Of a DNA stretch of 64,000 nucleotides, positions 16,669 through 31,038 are shown piece by piece. Each line of letters opens with the position of its first letter. Position 1 is the first letter of the stretch. Origin of the DNA: an uncultured candidate division Zixibacteria bacterium (lineage in GTDB: Bacteria > Zixibacteria > MSB-5A5 > GN15 > FEB-12); the NCBI GenBank assembly GCA_963806185.1, contig CAWDXE010000001.1, forward strand, positions 992,001 to 1,056,000. Reading direction: 5' to 3'. Below the pieces are notes generated by a model. The model was not told the origin of the DNA, searched no databases, and saw only the letters and a program-made list of their open reading frames with translations. The translations under genes were made by a program, and so were the position numbers.

Positions 16669-17094
16669 ATGACCACCCTGACCACTAAAATTGCCTGGGC
16701 CGGCGGACTCGCCTTTGAAGGCACCTCCACCTTCGGCCACAAGATTCGCACCGACGTCAAACGCGAGGCCGGCGGCGAGGAATCCGGCCACCGCCCCACC
16801 GAGTTGCTGCTCTATGCCATCGCCTCCTGCACCGGCGTCGACATCGTCAATATCCTGCGCAAACAACGTCAGGACTTGACCGGCCTTGAAATCGAAGTCA
16901 TCGGCACCCAGCGCGATGAATACCCCAAGGCGTTTGTCCATATCGAAATCAAGTACACCGCGCATGGAAACAACCTCGATCCGGCCAAAGTCGCCCAGGC
17001 GATCGAACTTTCGGAGAGCAAGTACTGCTCAGTAAGCGAAACCGTCCGGCGGGAGACCCACATCGAAACGAAGTTTGACATCCTCCCGGCCTGA
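16669..17094 (+). CDS. OsmC/YhfA family protein
   Basis: RPTELLLYAIASCTGVD and SESKYCSVS. Confidence 0.88.
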   Translation: MTTLTTKIAWAGGLAFEGTSTFGHKIRTDVKREAGGEESGHRPTELLLYAIASCTGVDIVNILRKQRQDLTGLEIEVIGTQRDEYPKAFVHIEIKYTAHGNNLDPAKVAQAIELSESKYCSVSETVRRETHIETKFDILPA

Positions 17095-17138: not shown

Positions 17139-17528
17139 ATGAAAGATCAGTTGAAATACGAAATCACCAGCGACAAACCGTTTGACACCGTTGTGGCCAA
17201 TATCGAACGCCTCGTTCCCGAAAAACAATTCCGCGTCCTGCATATTCACGACGTCAAAGCGACGCTCGAAGAAAAGGGATTCTACCGCGATTCGCTGAAA
17301 ATCATCGAGGTCTGCAACGCCGGCTTCGCCAGTCAGGCTCTCCAAAAGGATGTCGACGTCGCCCTCTTCATGCCCTGCAAGTTCTCCGTCTACGTGGTGA
17401 ACGGGAAGACGCATGTTTCCCTGGCGCGGCCGTCGATGATATCGCAAATGTTGCCCCAATCCGGCTTGAATGAACTGGCCGAATCGGTGGAAAAGACACT
17501 CAAAGAGGTCATGCACGCGGCTGTCTGA
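17139..17528 (+). CDS. DUF302 domain protein
   Basis: [34 protein letters not shown]. Confidence 0.8.
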
Positions 17529-17739: not shown

Positions 17740-20700
17740 ATGCACGCGTCACGGTTATCGAAATATCTCCGCACCACCTGTTTCGCCACCGCCATGGCAT
17801 TGCTATTCAGTCTATCTTCAATCGCCGAATCCATGCATGCAAACCCGTTTACCGAAGTGAAAGCACTCGCAAGCGGCGATGGCGTTCAGACTACGGTTTC
17901 GCCCGATCTCTATACTGATCTCCGACAGGGCCCGGACAGTCGTACCATCACTCTTCCGGTAAGTGGTGACCAGACGTTGGCTCTGGAATTGGTGAAGTTT
18001 TCAGTATTGGCGCCCGACGCCCGCATTCTGGTCGCTACTCCGTCCGGTCAGGAACCCCTGGCGGCCGGCGAAGCCATCACTATGCAGGGCTCAATTGCCT
18101 CTGACCCGTCGTCACATGCCTACCTCTCGATTGCCCCCTCCGGCCTGATCAACGGCTTTGTGCAGTCGGCTGACGGTTTGTTTCTCTTCTCCACCCCCAT
18201 CGAGAACCAGAAAGTAGCCGACTATCTCGTTGTCCAGCATCCTTCCGCCTTTGGCGGTGATCGGTACGACAACTTCTGCGGCACAGAGATTAACCCCGAC
18301 CGCATCCGCCAGGAACACGGCATCGCCGCAGCCAACGACAAGAAGGGCAATCTGATGCTCAACGTGGCGATCGATTGCGACCAGAGTCTTACACAAATGT
18401 ACCCTTCAGTTAGTCTGGCGCGCGACTATGTCGTGCAAGTGATCGGGGCCGTAAGCAGTATCTATCAGCGCGATCTGAAAATTCGCCTCGCGCTCCGCTT
18501 TGCCCGCTTCTGGCCGTCAGGCGGCGAGCCGTTTGACGTCAATGATCTGAGCGGTTTCCGCAGCTGGTGGGTAGGCCATGAGGATACCACCGGACTTGAC
18601 CTGACCGAAATGTGGAGCGCCCGCTTTCCGGGCTCGTATGCCGGTATTGCCTACCTCTCCAATACCTGCGAGCATTATGGGTACGGCATTCAGGCGACGA
18701 TGAATGGCACCTTCAACGTGCCGACCGTGTCCCCCCACTGGCGCGTCTGGGACGTCAATATCGTCGCCCACGAAATGGGCCACAACCTCGGCGCCTACCA
18801 CACTCACGACTACGACCCGCCGATCGACCAGTGCGGCAGTATGGGCATTCCCAGCATCGGCACGATCATGAGCTACTGCCACATTGTCGACGGCTCTATG
18901 CTCAATCTCGACCTGCGCATGCACCGTCTCATCAGTACCTGGATTCGCAGCGATATCGATTGGGCCGGCTGTCAGGAGTATGACTGCAACGGCAATTCGA
19001 TTGATGACGCCCGGGATATCGCGCTCGGCACCAGCCTTGACGTCAATCACGACGGCATCCCCGACGAATGCCAGGACTGTAATAACAACGGCATCCTCGA
19101 CCCGATCGACATTTCGAATGGCGCTCCGGATGTCGACGGCAACGGGGTACTCGATGCGTGTGAGCCCGACTGCAACGGCAATAATTACCCGGATCGCGCG
19201 GAAACCGTCAATGGCATTTCACCGGATTTTGACGGTAATTTCCTTCCGGATGCCTGCGATGCCGACTGCAATAACAACGCGGTCATCGATTTTGCCGAAA
19301 TCAATGATGATCCCCTGCTGGACCAAAATCGCAACCGTATTCTCGACGCGTGTGAAGACTGTAACAGCAATACCGTCAACGATTACTACGATATGAATCT
19401 GCAGCGACTGATGATTGTCGGCGACTCGACCAATCAGGCGTCAATGATCATTCGCACCCTCAACGGGTATAGCGGCGCTACGCACTCGAACATCCTCTCA
19501 AACAGCGGCGGTATCTGGGACCTGGTCGTCAATCCCGTCGATAGGCTGGCGTATATCGCCAATTATGATGCCGGGCGCGTCTATCGGTTCAATCCGGTGA
19601 CAAACACGGTCACATCCATACTCTCGAACGGCTACATTTCGGCCAGTGGCATAGCGTTCCACGATATCGGCGGCACGCAATACCTGTTCCTTGTACAGCG
19701 CCTGCTGAATCGAGTGCTTCGCTTCACCACCGCAGGAGCGTTGGTGGGTACTTTCGTCGCGTCGGGGAGCAGTCCGATGACTTCACCACGTGGCCTCACC
19801 TTCGGCCCTGACGGCAATCTGTACGTAGGGTGTGATGGTACCAACGCCATTTATAAGTTCGACGGTACCACGGGCGCCTATCTGGGCGTCTTCATCTCCG
19901 CGGGATCGGGTGGCCTCAATGATCCTTCCGGCATGATGTTCGACCCGGTCGGTGGCAACTTCTGGGTTGCCTCTACCGGTTCCAATCAGGTACTCGAATA
20001 CAATGGTACATCGGGCGCATATATCGGTCCGTTCACGACCGACGGCCCATTTCTGGGTGTCCCGTGGGGCATTCGCAAAGGCCCGGACGGCCTGATTTAT
20101 ATCGGACGACAAAGCCCCGACTCCCGCATCTTCGCCTTTAATCCGACTACGCGCGAATACCTCTATGCCTTCGTGCGAAATCTTGCCGATGCCTCATTCA
20201 AACCGACCGGCTTCGACTTCCTGCCCGACTCGCCCAATGATCTGAATCACAACTGGATATTGGATGCTTGTGAGTCCGGTGACTTTGACGGTGACGGTAT
20301 CGCCAACCTCACTGATAATTGCCCCGGGGCAGGAAACGCCGGACAGGTCGACTCCGACGGTGACGGCGTCGGAGATGCCTGCGACAACTGTCTGGCTGTT
20401 GCCAACCCGGATCAGCGTGACGCTGACAGTGACGGCCTGGGCGATGCGTGCGATCCCTGTCCCTCGAGCCCACTGCAAACCGATGCCGACAGCGACGGCG
20501 TTCTCGACGGCTGTGACAACTGCCCGTTGGTCAGCAATCCCGGTCAGGAAGACGTCGATGGCGACTTGATTGGCGATGCCTGCGACATCTGCGTCAACTC
20601 GCGAGACAATTCCGACACTGACGGCGACGGCGTATGTCAGTCTGAAGACAATTGCCCGGCAATAGCTAACGCCGACCAGACCGATTCGGACCATGACGGC

Positions 20701-21045
20701 ATCGGCGATGCCTGTGATTTTGACGGCGACGCCGACGGAATTAATGACAACGTCGACAACTGCCCGTTCGTCTATAACCCGGGTCAGGAGGACACTGATA
20801 ACGACGGCATCGGCGACGTTTGTTGCTGCGTGGCCGCGACCGGCAACATCGATTGTAGTGCCGGCGATGGTGTCGATATTGGTGACCTGACCGTGCTCAT
20901 CGATAACCTCTTCATTACGTTTGCACCGCTGTGCTGTCCCGGTGAAGGGAATGTTGACGCCACGGGGGGGACCGATATTAGCGATCTGACCGTCCTGATC
21001 GACAACCTGTTTATCACCTTTGGCACGCTGCCGAATTGCCAGTAG
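17740..21045 (+). CDS. Secreted M12B/reprolysin-like zinc metalloprotease with DCNxN repeats, NHL-type beta-propeller, thrombospondin type-3 repeats and dockerin-like C-terminal domain
   Basis: SD GAGGAGG before ATG 17740. Pro-domain FCGT Cys-switch, [11 protein letters not shown], Met-turn TIMSY, DCNGN repeats, [12 protein letters not shown], repeated DxDGDGxGDACDNCP, terminal [11 protein letters not shown]...[16 protein letters not shown]. Confidence 0.85.
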
Positions 21046-21139: not shown

Positions 21140-22537
21140 TCACTCTATGTTCATGTCCACAACTCGCGATTTGTCGAAGTCGACACATACTCCAAAGGGA
21201 ACCTTGCACTCCCAGGGCAGATTCTCACACGAGCCGTCATCTGAAGAAGCGTCGAGGAATACACAGCGACCCTCAACTTCGGTCATGACAAGCATATGAT
21301 TGAATAGTCCGGAAAGTTGAAACGGCAATTTGTCTCTGGTACTTATCAGAACCGGCCATGCTTTCACGCCGGCGCTTTCCAACATCTTTACCATTAGAAG
21401 ATTGATTTCGAACGGTACGCCGTGCCGGGTTTTGTATAGTTTCCGAAGATCGTCATGTGCCGGATGCATATTGTACCCACCACTATCTGCTGTATACTGA
21501 CTTGTGAGATAGTCACAAATCTTGACAATACGTACCATAGGCGCATCGTCAGATGACCATAGCTTGCCAAACTGCTTTCTCATGCCGATGGTAACTTTCA
21601 GATACTCATTCAGATATCCTTGAATACTCCGGCCCACGTATTGCCAGTGGGTGGAATCGTACACCCCGCGAATAATCCTGTTTTCCCCTCGATCGACGGA
21701 TGAGAATCTGTTGAAATGCAGGCCGCTGCGATTCAGTTCCGAGAAACCCTGGGCACTGCTGTCCGACGGAAATGCTCTGATATTCTCCATGTGCCAGGTG
21801 TGCTTCTTGTAGGCGGTAGCTGTCAACACCTTGACTCGTTCGACCGCCGGATCGGCTCTTTCGGCCGGCATATTTAGGGGGACAAACAGGTAATCGCAAT
21901 CTGCGCCAATCTTGGCCGTAAACTCGGAAGTGAGGCAGTATATAGGATTATCAAAATGCCAGGATGGCAGGTTCCGCATGACAATTCCTTCACCAAAATG
22001 ATCAATATCTCCCTCAATCCTCGTCTTGAACTTGTACGCGTCGTAGTAGTGCTCCTGTCCAAACAGGTAGAACGCCTCGGGCCCAAGTTTGTCAAAACCT
22101 GAGTAGTATTCGATCGTATATCGATACTCTATGATATCACCGGGCTGCAAATCAGAAAACTGCAACACACAGTATCGCCAAGGTCCCTTTTCTACTGTCT
22201 GAGAATGGTCTTTGGCAGAGAGCTTAGAGGTGATGCCCTGCCTGTGAAGCCTCATCTCAATGTCAGTCAGATGGTCATAGTGAAGATATTCAATAGTCGC
22301 CTCACCGGCTTGCACCGCGCCCGCCGGCGTGAATACTTTTAAACGGGTATGCCGGTCGAAAGTCACACCGCTCTGTTCGGTTGTGACGAGACCGCGATCA
22401 AAAAGAATTACAGCATCCGGATAGTCCGCGGTCGGTTGAAGACGCTCCTCATTCTCACTGAACTGCTCCCAGTCTTGCGCATACACGGATACGGCAAAGA
22501 GAAGCGAAAAGATAGCGAAACACCTGAGTAGATTCAT
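21140..22537 (-). CDS. Secreted DUF3857 plus transglutaminase-like domain protein
   Basis: Signal peptide, DAVILFD, RLKVFT, GDIIEYRYTI, EINLLMVKML...AWPVLISTR...FNHM...FLDAS. No catalytic Cys at the usual position. Confidence 0.7.
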   Translation of the reverse strand: MNLLRCFAIFSLLFAVSVYAQDWEQFSENEERLQPTADYPDAVILFDRGLVTTEQSGVTFDRHTRLKVFTPAGAVQAGEATIEYLHYDHLTDIEMRLHRQGITSKLSAKDHSQTVEKGPWRYCVLQFSDLQPGDIIEYRYTIEYYSGFDKLGPEAFYLFGQEHYYDAYKFKTRIEGDIDHFGEGIVMRNLPSWHFDNPIYCLTSEFTAKIGADCDYLFVPLNMPAERADPAVERVKVLTATAYKKHTWHMENIRAFPSDSSAQGFSELNRSGLHFNRFSSVDRGENRIIRGVYDSTHWQYVGRSIQGYLNEYLKVTIGMRKQFGKLWSSDDAPMVRIVKICDYLTSQYTADSGGYNMHPAHDDLRKLYKTRHGVPFEINLLMVKMLESAGVKAWPVLISTRDKLPFQLSGLFNHMLVMTEVEGRCVFLDASSDDGSCENLPWECKVPFGVCVDFDKSRVVDMNIE

Positions 22538-22913
22538 GCGATCCTCCCACCATCACTCAAATAGTCTCCAGGCCGGACAAATCGACAACTATTACTCGGC
22601 CAAGCCGGCTTGGGCAAAATGGCAATCAATGAAAGCTGGCTGGATCACGGCGCCGACCGGCGGCAGGAAACGGTAGATTTGAGTTGGCGGAGGACTGCCG
22701 GACACCATCTACTCTCCGTGAGCACTCGGGTGAGTGGCTACCAGTTTATGCCTTTTCACTCAACAGGCGAAATTAAGATCCTAATAATGGTGTGTCAAGT
22801 CGAGAATTGCTCGCAGCCGAATTTGTGAGGCCGAAATCGGTGGGAACAAAGGTCATCTTTCGCGGAGACGAAATTCAGAGGAACTGCCCGCCTGCGGGTG
22901 TTGTTTCCCCTGC

Positions 22914-23117
22914 ATGCGTTTAGTTCGGTCAATCTTTGACAATCGATTCACCCGCTTGGGGCTGTTTGTTCTGGCCGGCGGCCTGCTGGGTGTTGCCATC
23001 TCGGTCGCTTATTCGTATTTTGGTTCCACCTGACAGATCATGTGTAATCCATACCTGGCCGGGTCGCTGGGTGCCGGAGTCGGACTTATGCTGTCGCTGG
23101 ATAAGGCGAAAAACTAG
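22914..23117 (+). CDS. Probable small membrane selenoprotein (67 aa, DUF6132-like) with in-frame TGA at codon 40
   Basis: Manual translation MRLVRSIFDNRFTRLGLFVLAGGLLGVAISVAYSYFGST-U-QIMCNPYLAGSLGAGVGLMLSLDKAKN*. TGA at 23031-23033. The TAG stop ends 1 nt before the next ATG. A SECIS-like hairpin follows the TGA. Confidence 0.7.
23053..23072 (+). promoter_or_regulatory. Putative bacterial SECIS element 1
   Basis: ACCTGGC-CGGGTC-GCTGGGT stem-loop (two G-U pairs). The loop starts 26 nt after the TGA at 23031-23033. Confidence 0.55.
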
Positions 23118-23118
23118 A

Positions 23119-23334
23119 ATGCCGATTTTTGAGTATCAATGCCGCGATTGCGGCCGCAAATTCGAAGAGCTGGTGGGCGCAGCCGACGAAGCGATGAGCT
23201 GTCCCTCGTGCCAGTCGCAAAATGTCTTGAAACTGCTGTCGGTCTTCGCCGCCTCCGTGCCGTCCGGTGGCAGTGCTCCGGCGACTGCTTGCGGACGCCC
23301 CGGCTGTGGCGCCGGATTCAGTTGAGCCAATTGA
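23119..23334 (+). CDS. FmdB-family zinc-ribbon protein, probably with C-terminal selenocysteine (ends at 23325 if the first TGA is a stop)
   Basis: MPIFEYQCRDCG...CPSCQS...KLLSVF...CGRPGCGAGFS-TGA-GCC-AAT-TGA. Confidence 0.8.
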
Positions 23335-23339
23335 AGTGC

Positions 23340-23357
23340 GGCTCGCGGTCGCGGGCC
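23340..23357 (+). promoter_or_regulatory. Putative bacterial SECIS element 2
   Basis: GGCTCGC-GGTC-GCGGGCC stem-loop. The loop starts 21 nt after the TGA at 23323-23325. Confidence 0.6.
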
Positions 23358-23368
23358 ATCGGAGAACT

Positions 23369-23902
23369 ATGAAGAACCTCGGTCTTAGCGTTGTCGTCAC
23401 CGTCCTGTTGATTGCAGGTTGCGGCCCGGCAAAACATCTCGATGACAAACTCGACTGGCAGAAGATCGGTACTGTTGCGGCCAATTTCCCCGCTGCCCCG
23501 CAACCCGGCTCCAAACCGATCTTTCTCTACTTCAGCCAGAATAACTGCCACTACTGTGCCGCGATGGACAGCCTTTTTGAACGGTCGGAGGTCGCCTGGT
23601 ATATCAACGAGCACTTCCTGCCGGTAAATGTAAACGTGGATACCGATCTCCCCCTGTATGTGGGCCGTGACACCCTCGACTACGCGCGTCTCTTCAAGAT
23701 CTTCAAAATGGACGGATTCCCGGCCTATTACTTTTTCGACACTACCGGTCACCTCATGGGGATGCTGGAACGCTCCATGGACCTGGTGCACCTCAAACGG
23801 AGTCTTGTTTACGTCAACGATGGTCACTTCGGCAAGCTGTCCTGGGAGGATTTTTTGAAGTTACCCGACGTACCAAAGGACACCGTTCGGGGAATCTTCT
23901 AG
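23369..23902 (+). CDS. Thioredoxin-fold (SoxW/DsbD-gamma-like) lipoprotein
   Basis: SD GGAG, lipobox IAG-C, KPIFLYFSQNNCHYCAAM, GFPAYYFFD. Confidence 0.8.
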   Translation: MKNLGLSVVVTVLLIAGCGPAKHLDDKLDWQKIGTVAANFPAAPQPGSKPIFLYFSQNNCHYCAAMDSLFERSEVAWYINEHFLPVNVNVDTDLPLYVGRDTLDYARLFKIFKMDGFPAYYFFDTTGHLMGMLERSMDLVHLKRSLVYVNDGHFGKLSWEDFLKLPDVPKDTVRGIF

Positions 23903-26281: not shown

Positions 26282-26782
26282 ATGTCGATTCTTCGACGTT
26301 ACCCCAGTTTCGGAAAACCGGTTTTCGTGACGATGGTGACATGTAACCGAGCACCCGTTCTTGAACCAATGAGGTCGATGATTCTCGGCAAATTGCGTCG
26401 ACTGGACAGAGAAGGCGCTTGGCAACTCACCGCATGGGTCATATTGCCCGATCACCTTCACTTGCTAGTGCTCCCCAAGACGGCAGAGATATCACCCTTG
26501 ATTCATCGAGCAAAAATGGCGATTAGCTCAGGGTTACGCGCGCGGATAGGACACTCATTTGGGCGACTGTGGCAACATCGCTTCTTCGATCACATCATTC
26601 GAAATCAAGAAGATATGAATCGACACATAGATTACATTCACTACAACCCGGTAAGACATCACCTTGCGATCTCTCCGGGCGAGTATGAATATTCTTCCTT
26701 CAAGCTGTATCTCACTGACGAGAAGTATGAAGCTGATTGGGGCAGCGTGGAGGGGATGGATGGAAGGGACTTTGGCGAGTAG
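26282..26782 (+). mobile_element. REP-associated tyrosine transposase (RAYT/TnpA-REP, IS200/IS605-related HUH Y1 enzyme)
   Basis: FVTMVT, AWVILPDHLH (HUH), LWQHRFFDHIIRN, IDYIHYNPV, YSS; flanked by inverted REPs. Confidence 0.92.
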
Positions 26783-27693: not shown

Positions 27694-30636
27694 TCAATCG
27701 CACGGTGCGATCGGTGTGAAGGATATGAACATATAGTCCACCAGCGCCGTCAGGTCGCCGATATCCGGTGCCGACGGATTCCCCAGGCCGTCGCAATTCG
27801 CCTCTTCCGGACAACACAACGGTGTGAAGCTGATGAACAGGTTGTCTATGAGCACGGTTAGGTCACCAATATCCGGCTCCTCCAGTGTGCTGCAGTCAAT
27901 ATTCCCGGTCGATCCTTTGCAGCAGGTGGTTGCAGGATTGATACAGGTGCAATGCACCGGTGCCGGCCCTATGCCGATTCCGTAGTCGATAATGTACTGA
28001 ATATCGGCGTAGTTGATGATGCAGTCACCATTGGGATCACCGTTGGCCAGAGGCGATGGAGCGGGTCCACCGATTGTCAGATAGTTGATCAAATAGCTGA
28101 CGTCATTGATATCAATGGCGCCGTCGCTGTTCGCATCGCCCGGCATCTGCCCCAGACACGTATCGGCGGGGCAAATGACAAGCGCGAACTCCAAAACCGT
28201 GTGGATTGGTGCACCCACCGGTTGCACCGGCACCCAGCCCGGATTGTAGTAGTTCTGCCCCTGGAAATTCGCCACGTTTCCTGCATTAACAGGGTATCCC
28301 GAAAATTCCAGATGGAACGCCGGTGGCACCATGGGCAGGCAGGTCGACGGCACGACCGAATACCGATCGTGATGTATCGTCCCATGCGGTCCGGATACAT
28401 ACTGAGCGTCATTGTGCACGCTCGACGGATGGGCGGCCGCCTCATTGTCGTCGAAGTACGGATCAGAGATGCAAAACGCGGGTGTGCTCTCATCCGTACA
28501 GACTCCGGCTATCGTGACAAAATGGCCACCGATACGTTCACAGTAACCGGGCGCCATTTCCTGCCAGAAACCAAGCAGGAGAATCACATCCTGGCTCTTC
28601 ATTACCTGACTCTGCAACCACTCATAACCAAACGCCGGCTCGATCGGCACAACCTGTAACGTGTAGTAAGGGGCCAGTCCGGCGCCGTTGATCCAGGTCT
28701 GGGCAGCGGTGGCCAGATCGAATATGTTGGTTCCCGGCATCACGATATTGGTGTTTGCCAGTTTCGCCAAGGTATCGACGAATGGAATCACATTCGACGG
28801 GTCATGATCGTCCGCCTGAGTCATGCCTCGCACCAACGGATACTGATCACACACCGCGGGTGGCGGCGTGGTGCAGGTGTCGAATTTCGAATCAAACCAC
28901 CAGAGGCAATTGGCCAGGGCCACCGGCCCGCAGTGCGTCCACGGCGCGCCGGGTGGCATGCCGAACCACCAGCCATTCTGCTTTTGATCAAAGTCAGGCA
29001 TCCCCGCCGGGGTGTAATCCAGGTCGGCCGCCTTGTAATATTCACAAGTGTCGGGCCCCGCGCCGGGCACCGGAACTATGGCAGAGAACTCTGACGTATT
29101 CCTATTTACATCCGTAACGGTCGTCGTGAGAAAATCGCCGGGAGATGCCGCTGCAACTGTCAGCGTCCAGCTCCCATCCAGCAGCGGTGCCGCGCTGCCC
29201 AGATACGCCCGTCCCTCTCCATAACCGCTCGGGTCGGGACTGGCGAGGAATAACTCGACCGTTGCAGTGGTCGGGTCTCCGGGAATCGTTACCACGCCCG
29301 CCACCGTGGTATTGCCACCGGCGTAAGTGACTGATATAATCCCCGGAAAATTCAGCTCTTCGTTCGGCCCGGTGTCCAAGTCTCCCAGATCATTCAATGT
29401 TACACCATCGCTCTTCAAGTCGATGCCCAACGCGGCGTTGTCAAAGATGGCATTCATGGTGATCCGATTGCCGTCCGCATTGGTGTTGTCAACGGCATCC
29501 TCCCATACCGAAACACCGGCGGCGCCATTGGCGGAGATGCGGTTGCCCGGTCCTATCACGTTTCTCGGAGCGCATCCCCATTTGGCCTGGCCATATTCAC
29601 CGGCCGTCACGCCATTAAAGAGATTGGGCAGGGGGACGTTCGCAATGTCCAGGCCGATGATATTGGAATCGACGGTGTTGCTGTGAGTGAGAATAGGCGA
29701 TCCGAATCCTACGTTGTTGTACCCCTGGATGCCTATGCCGTCAAAATCATTGCCTGAGACCAGATTTCCGCGAACCAGATTGTGATGCGTGCCTTCGGCC
29801 AGACAAACCCCGTCGTGATCGTTCCCCAAATCTGCGGTCCCGTAGATATCGGTGCCAATGTAATTGTAGAGGATGAAGTTTTGCCAGACATCGCCCGGCA
29901 ATTGAGGTCCGATCACCGCCACACCTTCAGCATAATTTCCGGAAATGAGATTATGAGTGACCGTATTCCGGCAGGCGTAGCCCCCGGGTATGTTCTTAAT
30001 GCGCACGCCGCCCCACAGGGCTGTCATTTGACCGTTTCCCTGATCGAGCGTACCCTTGGGATCAGTGCCGATGAAACAACATTCAATCAGGTTATCGCAT
30101 GCCTCTCCGGTCGGCGTCCCCTCAATGCGAATGCCATCCTCCATGAACTGGTTGATCACCAGCCCACGAATGACATTGTTTGATGACTGTACATTTAGCC
30201 CAGGTGTCGGACCCGCTTGCGGTCCGGTGAGTACAATCATCAATATCGCTGTTGAAGGTGGATTGGTGCCGGCCGCAGAACCGGCCTGTGACAAACCGTC
30301 GATCACCACTCCGGATTGATCGGTGAGTGGCGGCAGGCCCGGCGGGAGAATCCAGAAGAAATATGGCCCCGGGAGGGGAAGATTGAAGATGATGGAATCT
30401 CGGCCCAGATTCGCATTGGCCGCCTGAATGGCCGCGCGAAGACTGCCGACTCCTCCATCCAGAACTGTGGTAACCACCAGGACAGCGGACGGTGAACGTG
30501 GCGCCTTCTGCCCCACTTGATTATCAGCCGATTCGCCTGGTGCTCGAATGGCGAGATCTCTGGTCTCAGCAATGGCTGCGGAGGCCAGGAGAAAAATAGC
30601 GACGCACACTACCATACACGCCCGGAAACGGAACAT
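27694..30636 (-). CDS. Secreted multidomain protein: parallel beta-helix repeats, papain-fold (C39-like) cysteine peptidase, dockerin, dockerin-like C-terminal domain
   Basis: SD AGGAGG before ATG 30636. Signal peptide, GSLRAAIQAAN, repeated NxIGTD/NLISGN, DFDQKQ...HCGPVALAN...GGHFVT...ISDP, GDANSDGAIDINDVSYLINYL, CCKGSTGNIDC. Confidence 0.75.
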   Translation of the reverse strand: MFRFRACMVVCVAIFLLASAAIAETRDLAIRAPGESADNQVGQKAPRSPSAVLVVTTVLDGGVGSLRAAIQAANANLGRDSIIFNLPLPGPYFFWILPPGLPPLTDQSGVVIDGLSQAGSAAGTNPPSTAILMIVLTGPQAGPTPGLNVQSSNNVIRGLVINQFMEDGIRIEGTPTGEACDNLIECCFIGTDPKGTLDQGNGQMTALWGGVRIKNIPGGYACRNTVTHNLISGNYAEGVAVIGPQLPGDVWQNFILYNYIGTDIYGTADLGNDHDGVCLAEGTHHNLVRGNLVSGNDFDGIGIQGYNNVGFGSPILTHSNTVDSNIIGLDIANVPLPNLFNGVTAGEYGQAKWGCAPRNVIGPGNRISANGAAGVSVWEDAVDNTNADGNRITMNAIFDNAALGIDLKSDGVTLNDLGDLDTGPNEELNFPGIISVTYAGGNTTVAGVVTIPGDPTTATVELFLASPDPSGYGEGRAYLGSAAPLLDGSWTLTVAAASPGDFLTTTVTDVNRNTSEFSAIVPVPGAGPDTCEYYKAADLDYTPAGMPDFDQKQNGWWFGMPPGAPWTHCGPVALANCLWWFDSKFDTCTTPPPAVCDQYPLVRGMTQADDHDPSNVIPFVDTLAKLANTNIVMPGTNIFDLATAAQTWINGAGLAPYYTLQVVPIEPAFGYEWLQSQVMKSQDVILLLGFWQEMAPGYCERIGGHFVTIAGVCTDESTPAFCISDPYFDDNEAAAHPSSVHNDAQYVSGPHGTIHHDRYSVVPSTCLPMVPPAFHLEFSGYPVNAGNVANFQGQNYYNPGWVPVQPVGAPIHTVLEFALVICPADTCLGQMPGDANSDGAIDINDVSYLINYLTIGGPAPSPLANGDPNGDCIINYADIQYIIDYGIGIGPAPVHCTCINPATTCCKGSTGNIDCSTLEEPDIGDLTVLIDNLFISFTPLCCPEEANCDGLGNPSAPDIGDLTALVDYMFISFTPIAPCD

Positions 30637-31038
30637 ACATCCTCCTGCGCGCAAACGATTAATATGTAGTACCCAGTCTGCCGCGGCTGGATATTTGATT
30701 GTCGCGTAAAATGTGTCCAGGAGCCCGAGAGTCGGATTGGAACTCTGCGACTCCTGCATATGGAGTCTCTATAATTGAAATGTATCCCTGCCCTCAACAT
30801 GCGTCAAGACAATTCGGGCGTGGAACTATACGGGATAATCTTAAGGACTATTATTCACTTTGTTGACGATTACGGTCGCGTTGAGGGCGTTTCTTGTCAG
30901 CGGAGGGGCACCCCCTCTCGGCCAAGTCAATGGAGCAGGCAAGACAGGGGGCGTCAGCAGGTGTCAGTAAGGTCAACCTGGGCACTTGGGACTCGCGCCC
31001 AGGTTGGTTGTGTACTTACCGCTTGGTTGTGATGACCA

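Follow-up and report, generated by a model that had tools for sequence, protein, structure and literature searches.

Bacterial selenocysteine insertion sequence (SECIS) elements are described by a consensus model in which a hairpin with a loop of 3-9 nucleotides (nt) and a G in its first two positions lies 16-37 nt from the UGA and folds at -7.5 kcal/mol or less (PMC13188914, accessible text). Elements of this canonical kind are present in 87.4% of the entries of BSepDB (PMC13326102, accessible text). In the table of 119 selenoprotein families accessible in PMC13188914, the zinc ribbon protein FmdB is entered as UxxU, and that table holds no selenocysteine (Sec) form of the membrane protein family DUF6132. 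This work concerns two adjacent genes related to these two families, found in a stretch of 64,000 nt (the window) from contig CAWDXE010000001.1 of an uncultured bacterium, whose genome is placed among the Zixibacteria by the source names of the relatives of gene 2. Gene 1 encodes a predicted membrane protein and gene 2 a zinc ribbon protein, each with an in-frame TGA codon, and a gene for a thioredoxin-fold lipoprotein (gene 3) follows them. Both TGA codons are very probably decoded as Sec. This assignment draws on comparison of sequences between genomes, which reveals an alternation of TGA and Cys codons, a conserved gene pair, covarying hairpins, Sec machinery and a promoter motif.

A search with the single protein matched gene 1 in 25 of 41 related genomes, with the in-frame TGA in all 25, and a profile search matched it in 106 of 201 genomes of the phylum. 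The loci of these 106 genomes, together with two from the single-protein search, form the set of 108 Zixibacteria loci used throughout. The key codon is TGA in 79 of them, Cys in 27, AGA in one and broken in one, three of these codons having been checked by eye. TGA is found in 78 of the 83 loci from the order of the window genome, and Cys in 24 of the 25 loci from other orders. In a search of Desulfobacterota, the phylum to which a Desulfogranum genome belongs, matches came from 30 of 251 genomes, and all 30 loci carry TGA at the same column. A profile search of the full library gave 391 matches at E<=0.001, and the best 150 of these have Cys (146), Trp (3) or Arg (1) at the Sec column. Thus the alternation to be expected of a Sec codon was found: the relatives of gene 1 are conserved beyond the TGA, with Cys or TGA at one and the same column. 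In two unusual loci, L056 (G198) and L066 (G008), the Sec column holds AGA (Arg) or gene 1 is broken, respectively, and both keep the TGA and hairpin of gene 2. The three Trp residues could hint at a genome-wide reassignment of TGA to Trp, Gly or Cys. Such a reassignment is extremely improbable, since 1133 of the 2367 long open reading frames (ORFs) of the genome end at TGA in normal stop use, the sole tRNA with a TCA anticodon listed by ARAGORN is tRNA-SeC, and the Trp rows would be explained more simply by gene calling under another code.

The Sec machinery of the genome was found as well: selA (498 bits), selB (330 bits) and selD (390 bits) score above their cut-offs, and tRNA-Sec was detected by both ARAGORN and Rfam. 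Absence of this machinery, loss of conservation past the TGA and lack of hairpin conservation had been named in the original prediction as grounds for abandoning Sec; instead, the machinery is present, gene 1 is conserved past its TGA and the hairpin of gene 2 is conserved. The selD gene has an in-frame TGA of its own, with an AGUUC hairpin loop 19 nt past it, and GGUC loops lie at 21-23 nt in two other genes of the genome that are likely selenogenes. A thioredoxin-plus-TPR gene (L218, G000:C3 ~277892, - strand) reads W-TGA-SWC, a UxxC motif, with a GGUC hairpin at 23 nt, and likely encodes a selenoprotein. At L219 (G000:C4 ~165560-166753), a NuoM frame stays open into a glutaredoxin-like domain whose end reads GFGGG-TGA-GI, with a GGUC hairpin, which may be an odd fusion, a separate in-frame UXX-star-like gene or an assembly error.

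Gene 2 is recognised as a member of the FmdB family (TIGR02605, 56.3 against 31.3 bits; PF09723, 54 against 34.4 bits) and lies on the same strand as gene 1 in 108 of 108 loci, within 100 nt of it in 106. TGA is the first stop of gene 2 in 106 of 108 loci, whereas the real stop of gene 1 is TGA in 31 of 89. A second in-frame stop follows 1-5 codons past the TGA in all 106, and the codon after the TGA specifies Ala or Gly in 99. In 95 of the 106 loci, a G-loop hairpin is present 14-30 nt past the TGA, against 7.9% of shuffles and about 8% after ordinary stops, and the strict test for a GGUC hairpin is passed by 66 of 106 loci against 3 of the 2367 ordinary stops of this genome. This hairpin is conserved and shows covariation, its stems changing freely yet staying complementary in mostly non-coding sequence, with the loop GGUC in 65. 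The two loci without TGA comprise one with a Cys-rich tail (L100) and one with a frameshifted copy (L122). L117 is a Cys form (GFG-C-GN) whose TGA, counted among the 106, is a true stop with no hairpin, and L025, of the same genus, reads GFS-U-GN and has the hairpin. Each of the 105 gene 2 tails has at least one Cys before U, and 19 have one after it.

If these TGAs were ordinary stops, gene 1 would be a 39-residue peptide or a pseudogene, gene 2 would end at FS, and the hairpins would be products of chance or terminators. In agreement with this, most database relatives of gene 2 (96 of 120) finish in F-S/T/G/R/K, that is, at the TGA, and single hairpins are not unusual when compared with shuffles. 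However, the database protein ends merely reflect gene calling at TGA, and the explanation is made highly improbable by the protein-level conservation past the gene 1 TGA and the retention of TGA in gene 2; moreover, the gene 2 hairpin is absent from the terminator-like sites found, and gene 3 lies 3' of it.

The original prediction spoke of a Sec zinc ribbon, which holds in that a Sec-bearing FmdB ribbon protein is supported. The Sec, however, would sit two residues short of the C terminus, in a flexible tail, and all four ribbon cysteines (C8, C11, C28 and C31) are invariant, for which reason a Sec inside the ribbon was rejected. The second TGA (23332) was also rejected as a Sec codon, being 12 nt from the loop and varying among all three stops in relatives (45/36/25). 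Outside the phylum, 52 of 55 loci were examined (three partial matches were left out, and tails were classed by eye), and 12 of the 52, from Desulfobacterota, Chloroflexia and Bryobacterales, have a tail of the gene 2 type. In these outside genomes, selA is present in 11 of 12 with the tail and 20 of 38 without it (Fisher p 0.018, with kin not independent; 50 genomes, L136 and L177 left out, and one control genome, G254, unpublished). Two Poribacteria FmdB genes (L147, L169) in selA-positive genomes carry a TGA with a similar extension of 7-9 residues (A-L/I-P-N-S-G-S) and a weak hairpin, and the window genome encodes a second FmdB-family paralog with no Sec tail (G000:C7 ~726906, - strand). 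Gene 2 had no match at E<=1 to the UXX-star models NF041114 and NF041211 or to other C-terminal-Sec families of NCBIfam, and a search of solved structures and folds gave weak generic zinc-finger matches at most.

Within the window (Table 1), the elements lie where the original prediction had placed them. The motif GGAACT-N16-TGTTT occupies 22880-22906, 7 nt ahead of the ATG at 22914; the TAG stop of gene 1 ends at 23117 and, after a gap of 1 nt, the ATG of gene 2 follows at 23119. The TGA at 23031 is followed 26 nt on by the loop CGGGUC on an 8-bp stem (-14.6 kcal/mol), and that at 23323 is followed 21 nt on by the loop GGUC on a 7-bp stem (-12.0 kcal/mol), both hairpins lying within all four limits of the consensus model. 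Gene 3 begins 34 nt after gene 2, has a lipobox LIAG-C18 (as a motif only) and C60-H-Y-C63, and matches PF13098 with 37.4 bits (cut-off 27). A single short contig from sequencing runs spans the TGA at 23323 and its hairpin, unchanged there; such contigs, of 151-176 nt, are uninformative on expression or habitat.

Table 1. Predicted features of the two-selenoprotein locus, in window positions.
Feature	Position	Strand	Remark
Predicted ECF (SigH/SigR-type) promoter GGAAC-N18-GTT	22880..22905	+	GTT ends 8 nt 5' of ATG
Gene 1, DUF6132-related two-helix membrane selenoprotein (predicted), 67 residues, U40-Q-I-M-C44-N-P	22914..23117	+	
In-frame TGA of gene 1, predicted Sec40	23031..23033	+	TGA/Cys alternation across loci
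Gene 1 predicted proximal SECIS, TACCTGGC-CGGGTC-GCTGGGTG	23052..23073	+	loop 26 nt past UGA
Gene 2, FmdB-family zinc ribbon, 71 residues, tail C58-x4-C63-x5-U69-A-N-stop	23119..23334	+	TIGR02605
TGA of gene 2, predicted Sec69	23323..23325	+	actual stop is TGA 23332-23334
Gene 2 predicted SECIS, GGCTCGC-GGTC-GCGGGCC, 3' of stop codon	23340..23357	+	loop 21 nt past UGA
Gene 3, predicted lipoprotein with thioredoxin fold (CHYC), accessory	23369..23902	+	
osmC-family gene	16669..17094	+	5.4 kb upstream here, same unit in most relatives
DUF302 gene	17139..17528	+	directly 5' of gene 1 in most relatives

The hairpin 26 nt past the gene 1 TGA is thus present as described and fits the model, but it is a minority form, most relatives having a more distal hairpin. 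Among 105 parsed Zixibacteria loci (78 Sec and 26 Cys forms), a GG-loop hairpin starting 48 nt past the UGA is found in 62 of the 78 Sec forms against 1 of the 26 Cys forms. Synonymous resampling predicts 26.5-31.9, meaning that the protein sequence explains about half. In the first 25 loci, compensatory changes are seen at four of the six pairs of the distal hairpin. The stretch between the UGA and the distal hairpin is more stably folded than its synonymous controls in distal-type genes (mean z -2.2), which is not so in Cys forms (+0.3). A strict proximal GGU hairpin is found in 10 of the 78 Sec forms against 1.5 expected, namely in 7 of the 16 that lack the distal type (the window gene included) and 3 of the 62 that have it, and the proximal forms fall at three or more separate places on a tree built from these short sequences.

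In Desulfobacterota, which served as an independent test, the 48-nt register was rejected, at least five of its six pairs being formed in only 2 of 28 loci. The hairpin there straddles the stop at 65-66 nt, a window picked after the folds had been inspected. It is found in 21 of the 30 loci, a proximal GGU hairpin at 19-20 nt in six, both in none and neither in three. In 22 of the 30 loci, pairing in the spacer and far stems reaches 85% and 10 of 14 pairs show double changes, more than in any shuffle or slide; these loci were chosen for lacking the proximal type, and both this selection and the post-hoc window favour the result. Once the spacer stem is subtracted, the remaining distance falls in the canonical range, being 17-26 nt in 61 of 62 Zixibacteria genes and, for Desulfobacterota, 16-30 nt in all 21. 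The distal hairpin is presumably the working SECIS of most gene 1 relatives, in which an element at 48 or 65-66 nt would come to act from a normal distance by means of a spacer stem, the window gene using the canonical proximal form. On balance, we favour a widespread two-selenoprotein module against thiol stress, made up of a UxxxC hairpin in the membrane and a zinc ribbon bearing a Sec arm. The SECIS of its membrane gene would act from 48-66 nt, a spacer stem folding away the coding sequence in between and thereby restoring an effective spacing of 16-30 nt, with repeated jumps between proximal and distal positions in two phyla. An Rfam scan gave one weak chance match at most, and no distal bacterial SECIS was found in a literature search on SECIS distance and looping, most subscription papers being outside its scope; the spacer of PMC4605307 is, in its accessible text, a protein spacer.

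The strong RNA structure past the UGA, seen in Sec forms only, could also suit a gene 1 UGA acting mainly as a selenium sensor, at which a stop under selenium scarcity would lower the coupled translation of genes 2 and 3. The close packing of the genes, with gene 2 starting 1 nt past gene 1 here and nearby in nearly all loci, would be in line with it. Against this very unlikely proposal, the 27 loci with Cys in gene 1 have an unchanged gene order, and the prevalence of Cys among the 150 relatives points to a chemical role of the column.

Gene 1 was not recognised in Pfam and NCBIfam scans, a word-indexed homolog search with gene 1 by itself gave no matches, and searches of solved structures and folds gave nothing significant. 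Its relation to DUF6132 (PF19628) emerges through its relatives: among the best 50 matches, 35 match this family, 32 of them above its cut-off, and the gene 1 profile aligned with one DUF6132 member with a probability of 98.2 (E 3e-14). The window protein itself has no match to PF19628 (cut-off 23.2 bits), and only 4 of 24 close relatives match it (best E 3.5e-4); hence, gene 1 is called DUF6132-related, and not a member by cut-off. The first cysteine of the motif GCxxGxCP corresponds to Y35 (C in 119 of the 150 matches) and the second to U40, the motif having moved from CxxxxC to UxxxC. AlphaFold places helices at 11-36 and 46-65 around a loop. The mean number of Lys and Arg residues is 3.3 in the N-terminal part, 0.1 in the loop and 1.3 in the C-terminal part. 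Under the positive-inside rule, by which positively charged segments stay in the cytoplasm, this charge bias, seen in 24 of 24 sequences, predicts both ends inside and the loop outside. Of 25 longer DUF6132 forms analysed, 17 carry thioredoxin, 4 rhodanese, 2 cupin and 1 sulfatase, and in the remaining one nothing was recognised.

The conserved gene order is a presumed DUF255/YyaL-like gene (36 of 108 loci), osmC (74), DUF302 (81), gene 1, gene 2 and a lipoprotein gene of the thioredoxin-like kind (29); a methyltransferase gene lies convergently in 33, all neighbour counts being lower bounds taken from flanks of 1.5-2.5 kb. The three-gene operon of the original prediction is therefore kept in part: genes 1 and 2 are paired, but gene 3 is no core member, being near gene 1 in those 29 loci, and osmC and DUF302 are conserved instead. 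Relatives of gene 3 have CxxC in 16 of 26 aligned sequences. In Desulfobacterota, where neighbour identities come from scanning one representative of each gene, the order is trxA-gene 1-gene 2 in six of the 30 loci and ECF sigma/zf-HC2-gene 1-trxB-gene 2 in four. In the window, two genes spanning 5.4 kb separate osmC and DUF302 from gene 1. The first (17740-21045, +) encodes a large protein that looks secreted, has an HExxH-type motif and Asp-rich repeats, and shares a C-terminal repeat with 27694-30759; the second (21140-22537, -) is a DUF3857/transglutaminase gene, and together they split the operon known from relatives. Further downstream, the ORF at 26282-26782 (+) has an HLH motif and presumably resembles a REP-associated tyrosine transposase.

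The transcription of the pair is predicted to be under the control of an extracytoplasmic function (ECF) sigma factor. The sequence GGAAC-N18-GTT agrees with the SigH/SigE consensus of Corynebacterium in the accessible text of PMC10012870. Across the genome, with spacers of 17 and 18, 40 of 138 motif sites are intergenic against 11.6% expected (p 3e-8), whereas other spacers (45 of 362) show no enrichment. Upstream of gene 1, the motif is present in 15 of 27 loci where this gene heads its unit against 3 of 80 where it is internal, with a background of 0.7% and four loci having too little upstream sequence to be counted. The ECF promoter proposed originally is therefore supported, being conserved where gene 1 leads a unit and enriched between genes. 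A leaderless transcript, tentatively suggested along with it, would fit 4 of the 15 promoter-bearing loci, where an in-frame start lies within 9 nt of GTT, and would clearly fit only 2. In the window, two sigma-70-like sites were found against 0.6 expected, and one terminator-like hairpin overlapping the promoter spacer against 1.4 expected. The genome contains two exact copies of the motif, one before gene 1 and the other before an ECF sigma gene (L182, G000:C5:128325-129790), which is followed by a gene for a 265-residue anti-sigma factor with a zf-HC2 domain above its cut-off and a hydrophobic, predicted membrane segment. The approximately 40 intergenic sites form a candidate redox regulon; they include sites before two superoxide dismutases, a pyridoxal phosphate (cysteine-synthase-like) enzyme and an Rrf2 gene, redox-type targets that were picked out of 40 sites of which many precede unrelated genes.

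Taken together, genes 1 and 2 probably encode two selenol carriers induced by stress, a membrane protein that faces out and a cytoplasmic one, which work together with thioredoxin systems, and the pair likely serves in defence against thiol-oxidising stress. Upon oxidation, the zinc-finger anti-sigma factor would free the SigH-like sigma factor, which would start transcription from 22880-22905, and SelB and tRNA-Sec of this genome would decode both TGAs through the hairpins behind them. Gene 1 would enter the membrane as a hairpin of helices, its two ends inside and U40-x3-C44 in the outward loop. It would form a minimal selenol/thiol relay of the membrane and exchange with proteins of the thioredoxin fold, namely gene 3 in this genome and TrxA/TrxB or a fused thioredoxin in others. 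Gene 2 would be a cytoplasmic zinc ribbon whose flexible Cys/Sec arm reduces or captures oxidised thiols or persulfides. The partners, the direction of electron flow and the substrates in this scheme are inferred.

The main rival explanation agrees that both proteins are selenoproteins, but has them bind or hand on a soft metal, a metalloid or sulfane sulfur/selenium rather than relay electrons in disulfide-stress defence. The rhodanese fusions in 4 of the 25 longer DUF6132 forms, the DUF302 neighbour and the cysteines around U in the gene 2 tails would all suit this alternative, and metal-ligand roles have been suggested for the C-terminal Sec of SaoC and UXX-star proteins (PMC13188914, accessible text). 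Thioredoxin fusions, however, outnumber those with rhodanese, trxA or trxB adjoin the pair in 10 of 30 Desulfobacterota loci, the promoter is shared with superoxide dismutases, and no metal transporter is among the listed conserved neighbours, all of which makes the alternative unlikely.

Several observations weigh against the selenol carrier scheme, or against the Sec assignment beneath it. The related genomes are not independent of one another and, as selA is nearly universal in the phylum (191 of 201 genomes), no Sec-negative contrast exists within it. Direct Cys homologs of gene 2 are few (1 of 108 loci, L117, and 2 of 120 proteins), and 9 of the 78 gene 1 Sec forms have neither hairpin type. 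The hairpin regions of the window fold no better than shuffles (z +1.39 for gene 1 and +0.13 for gene 2). The promoter motif, at up to one mismatch, has two window matches against 0.72 expected, a number reached by 17 of 100 shuffles. Since the window features are singly no better than chance, the case rests on the comparison across genomes. Regarding the regulation, the motif precedes 5 of 67 osmC-headed and 0 of 10 DUF302-headed units, and in Desulfobacterota it is found in 2 of 27 loci, both times more than 1 kb away. The sigma factor has as its best model SigH_actino (TIGR02947), with 190 bits against a cut-off of 251.55, and the anti-sigma factor TIGR03988 (RsrA), with 40.8 against 62.5. 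The AlphaFold model of gene 1 is modest (predicted local distance difference test, pLDDT, 66; predicted template modelling score, pTM, 0.34). Finally, by the positive-inside rule, the fused C-terminal thioredoxin would be cytoplasmic while the Sec loop faces out, which does not readily fit an exchange between them.

Neither Sec site is in the 2026 catalogue table (PMC13188914), and neither Sec form is represented by a model in NCBIfam 20.0. FmdB, zinc ribbon and DUF6132 had no match in the accessible text of PMC12013277 or PMC13326102. A literature search on FmdB, DUF6132 and Zixibacteria selenoproteins and on C-terminal Sec found neither site, most subscription papers lying outside its scope, and the FmdB of PMC11227280 is, in its accessible text, a different one. 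The locus would thus add two Sec sites new to the catalogue table, which gene callers cut or drop and which are present in other phyla and in 106 of the 201 Zixibacteria genomes sampled, about half. Two families of unknown function, DUF6132 and FmdB, would gain a shared, testable role under a named promoter type. If distal SECIS elements do operate, the positional rule used by selenoprotein predictors would be relaxed and a hidden class of selenoproteins exposed, and the alternation of proximal and distal forms supplies natural sequence pairs for asking whether a distance of 16-37 nt from the UGA is obligatory for a bacterial SECIS.

Compared with DUF6132 (PF19628), a family of small two-helix proteins with GCxxGxCPxxSNP, gene 1 shares two Gly-rich hydrophobic helices, the invariant second Cys column and the N-P motif; it differs in having Sec at that invariant Cys, in the loss of the first Cys and in a new Cys four residues on. 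Judging from their names and motifs, several of the UXX-star (NF041114, NF041211), SaoC, HgcB and KCU-star proteins presumably carry Sec within a few residues of the C terminus, so their SECIS must lie past the stop, as in gene 2; their folds are unrelated to that of gene 2. The FmdB selenoproteins in the GOS (Global Ocean Sampling) set belong to the same zinc ribbon family, with Sec predicted, as here, from TGA and SECIS (PMC2398784, accessible text). In the two GOS sequences, however, Sec lies in a CxxU/UxxU motif, whereas gene 2 has the tail F-x-U-[G/A] with the SECIS past the stop; U69 is preceded by G-F-S, with the nearest Cys at 63, and thus does not form CxxU or UxxU. The regulation resembles the thiol-stress regulons of actinobacterial SigH/SigR and RshA/RsrA (PMC10012870, accessible text), with which it shares GGAAC-N17/18-GTT, a sigma gene followed by one for a zf-HC2 anti-sigma factor, and redox targets; it differs in belonging to another phylum, in scores below the family cut-offs, in a 265-residue anti-sigma factor with a predicted membrane segment and in having selenoprotein targets. 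With respect to the consensus SECIS model, the hairpins of the window are canonical, while in most gene 1 relatives the conserved GG-loop, 48 or 65-66 nt away and behind a spacer stem, falls outside the model.

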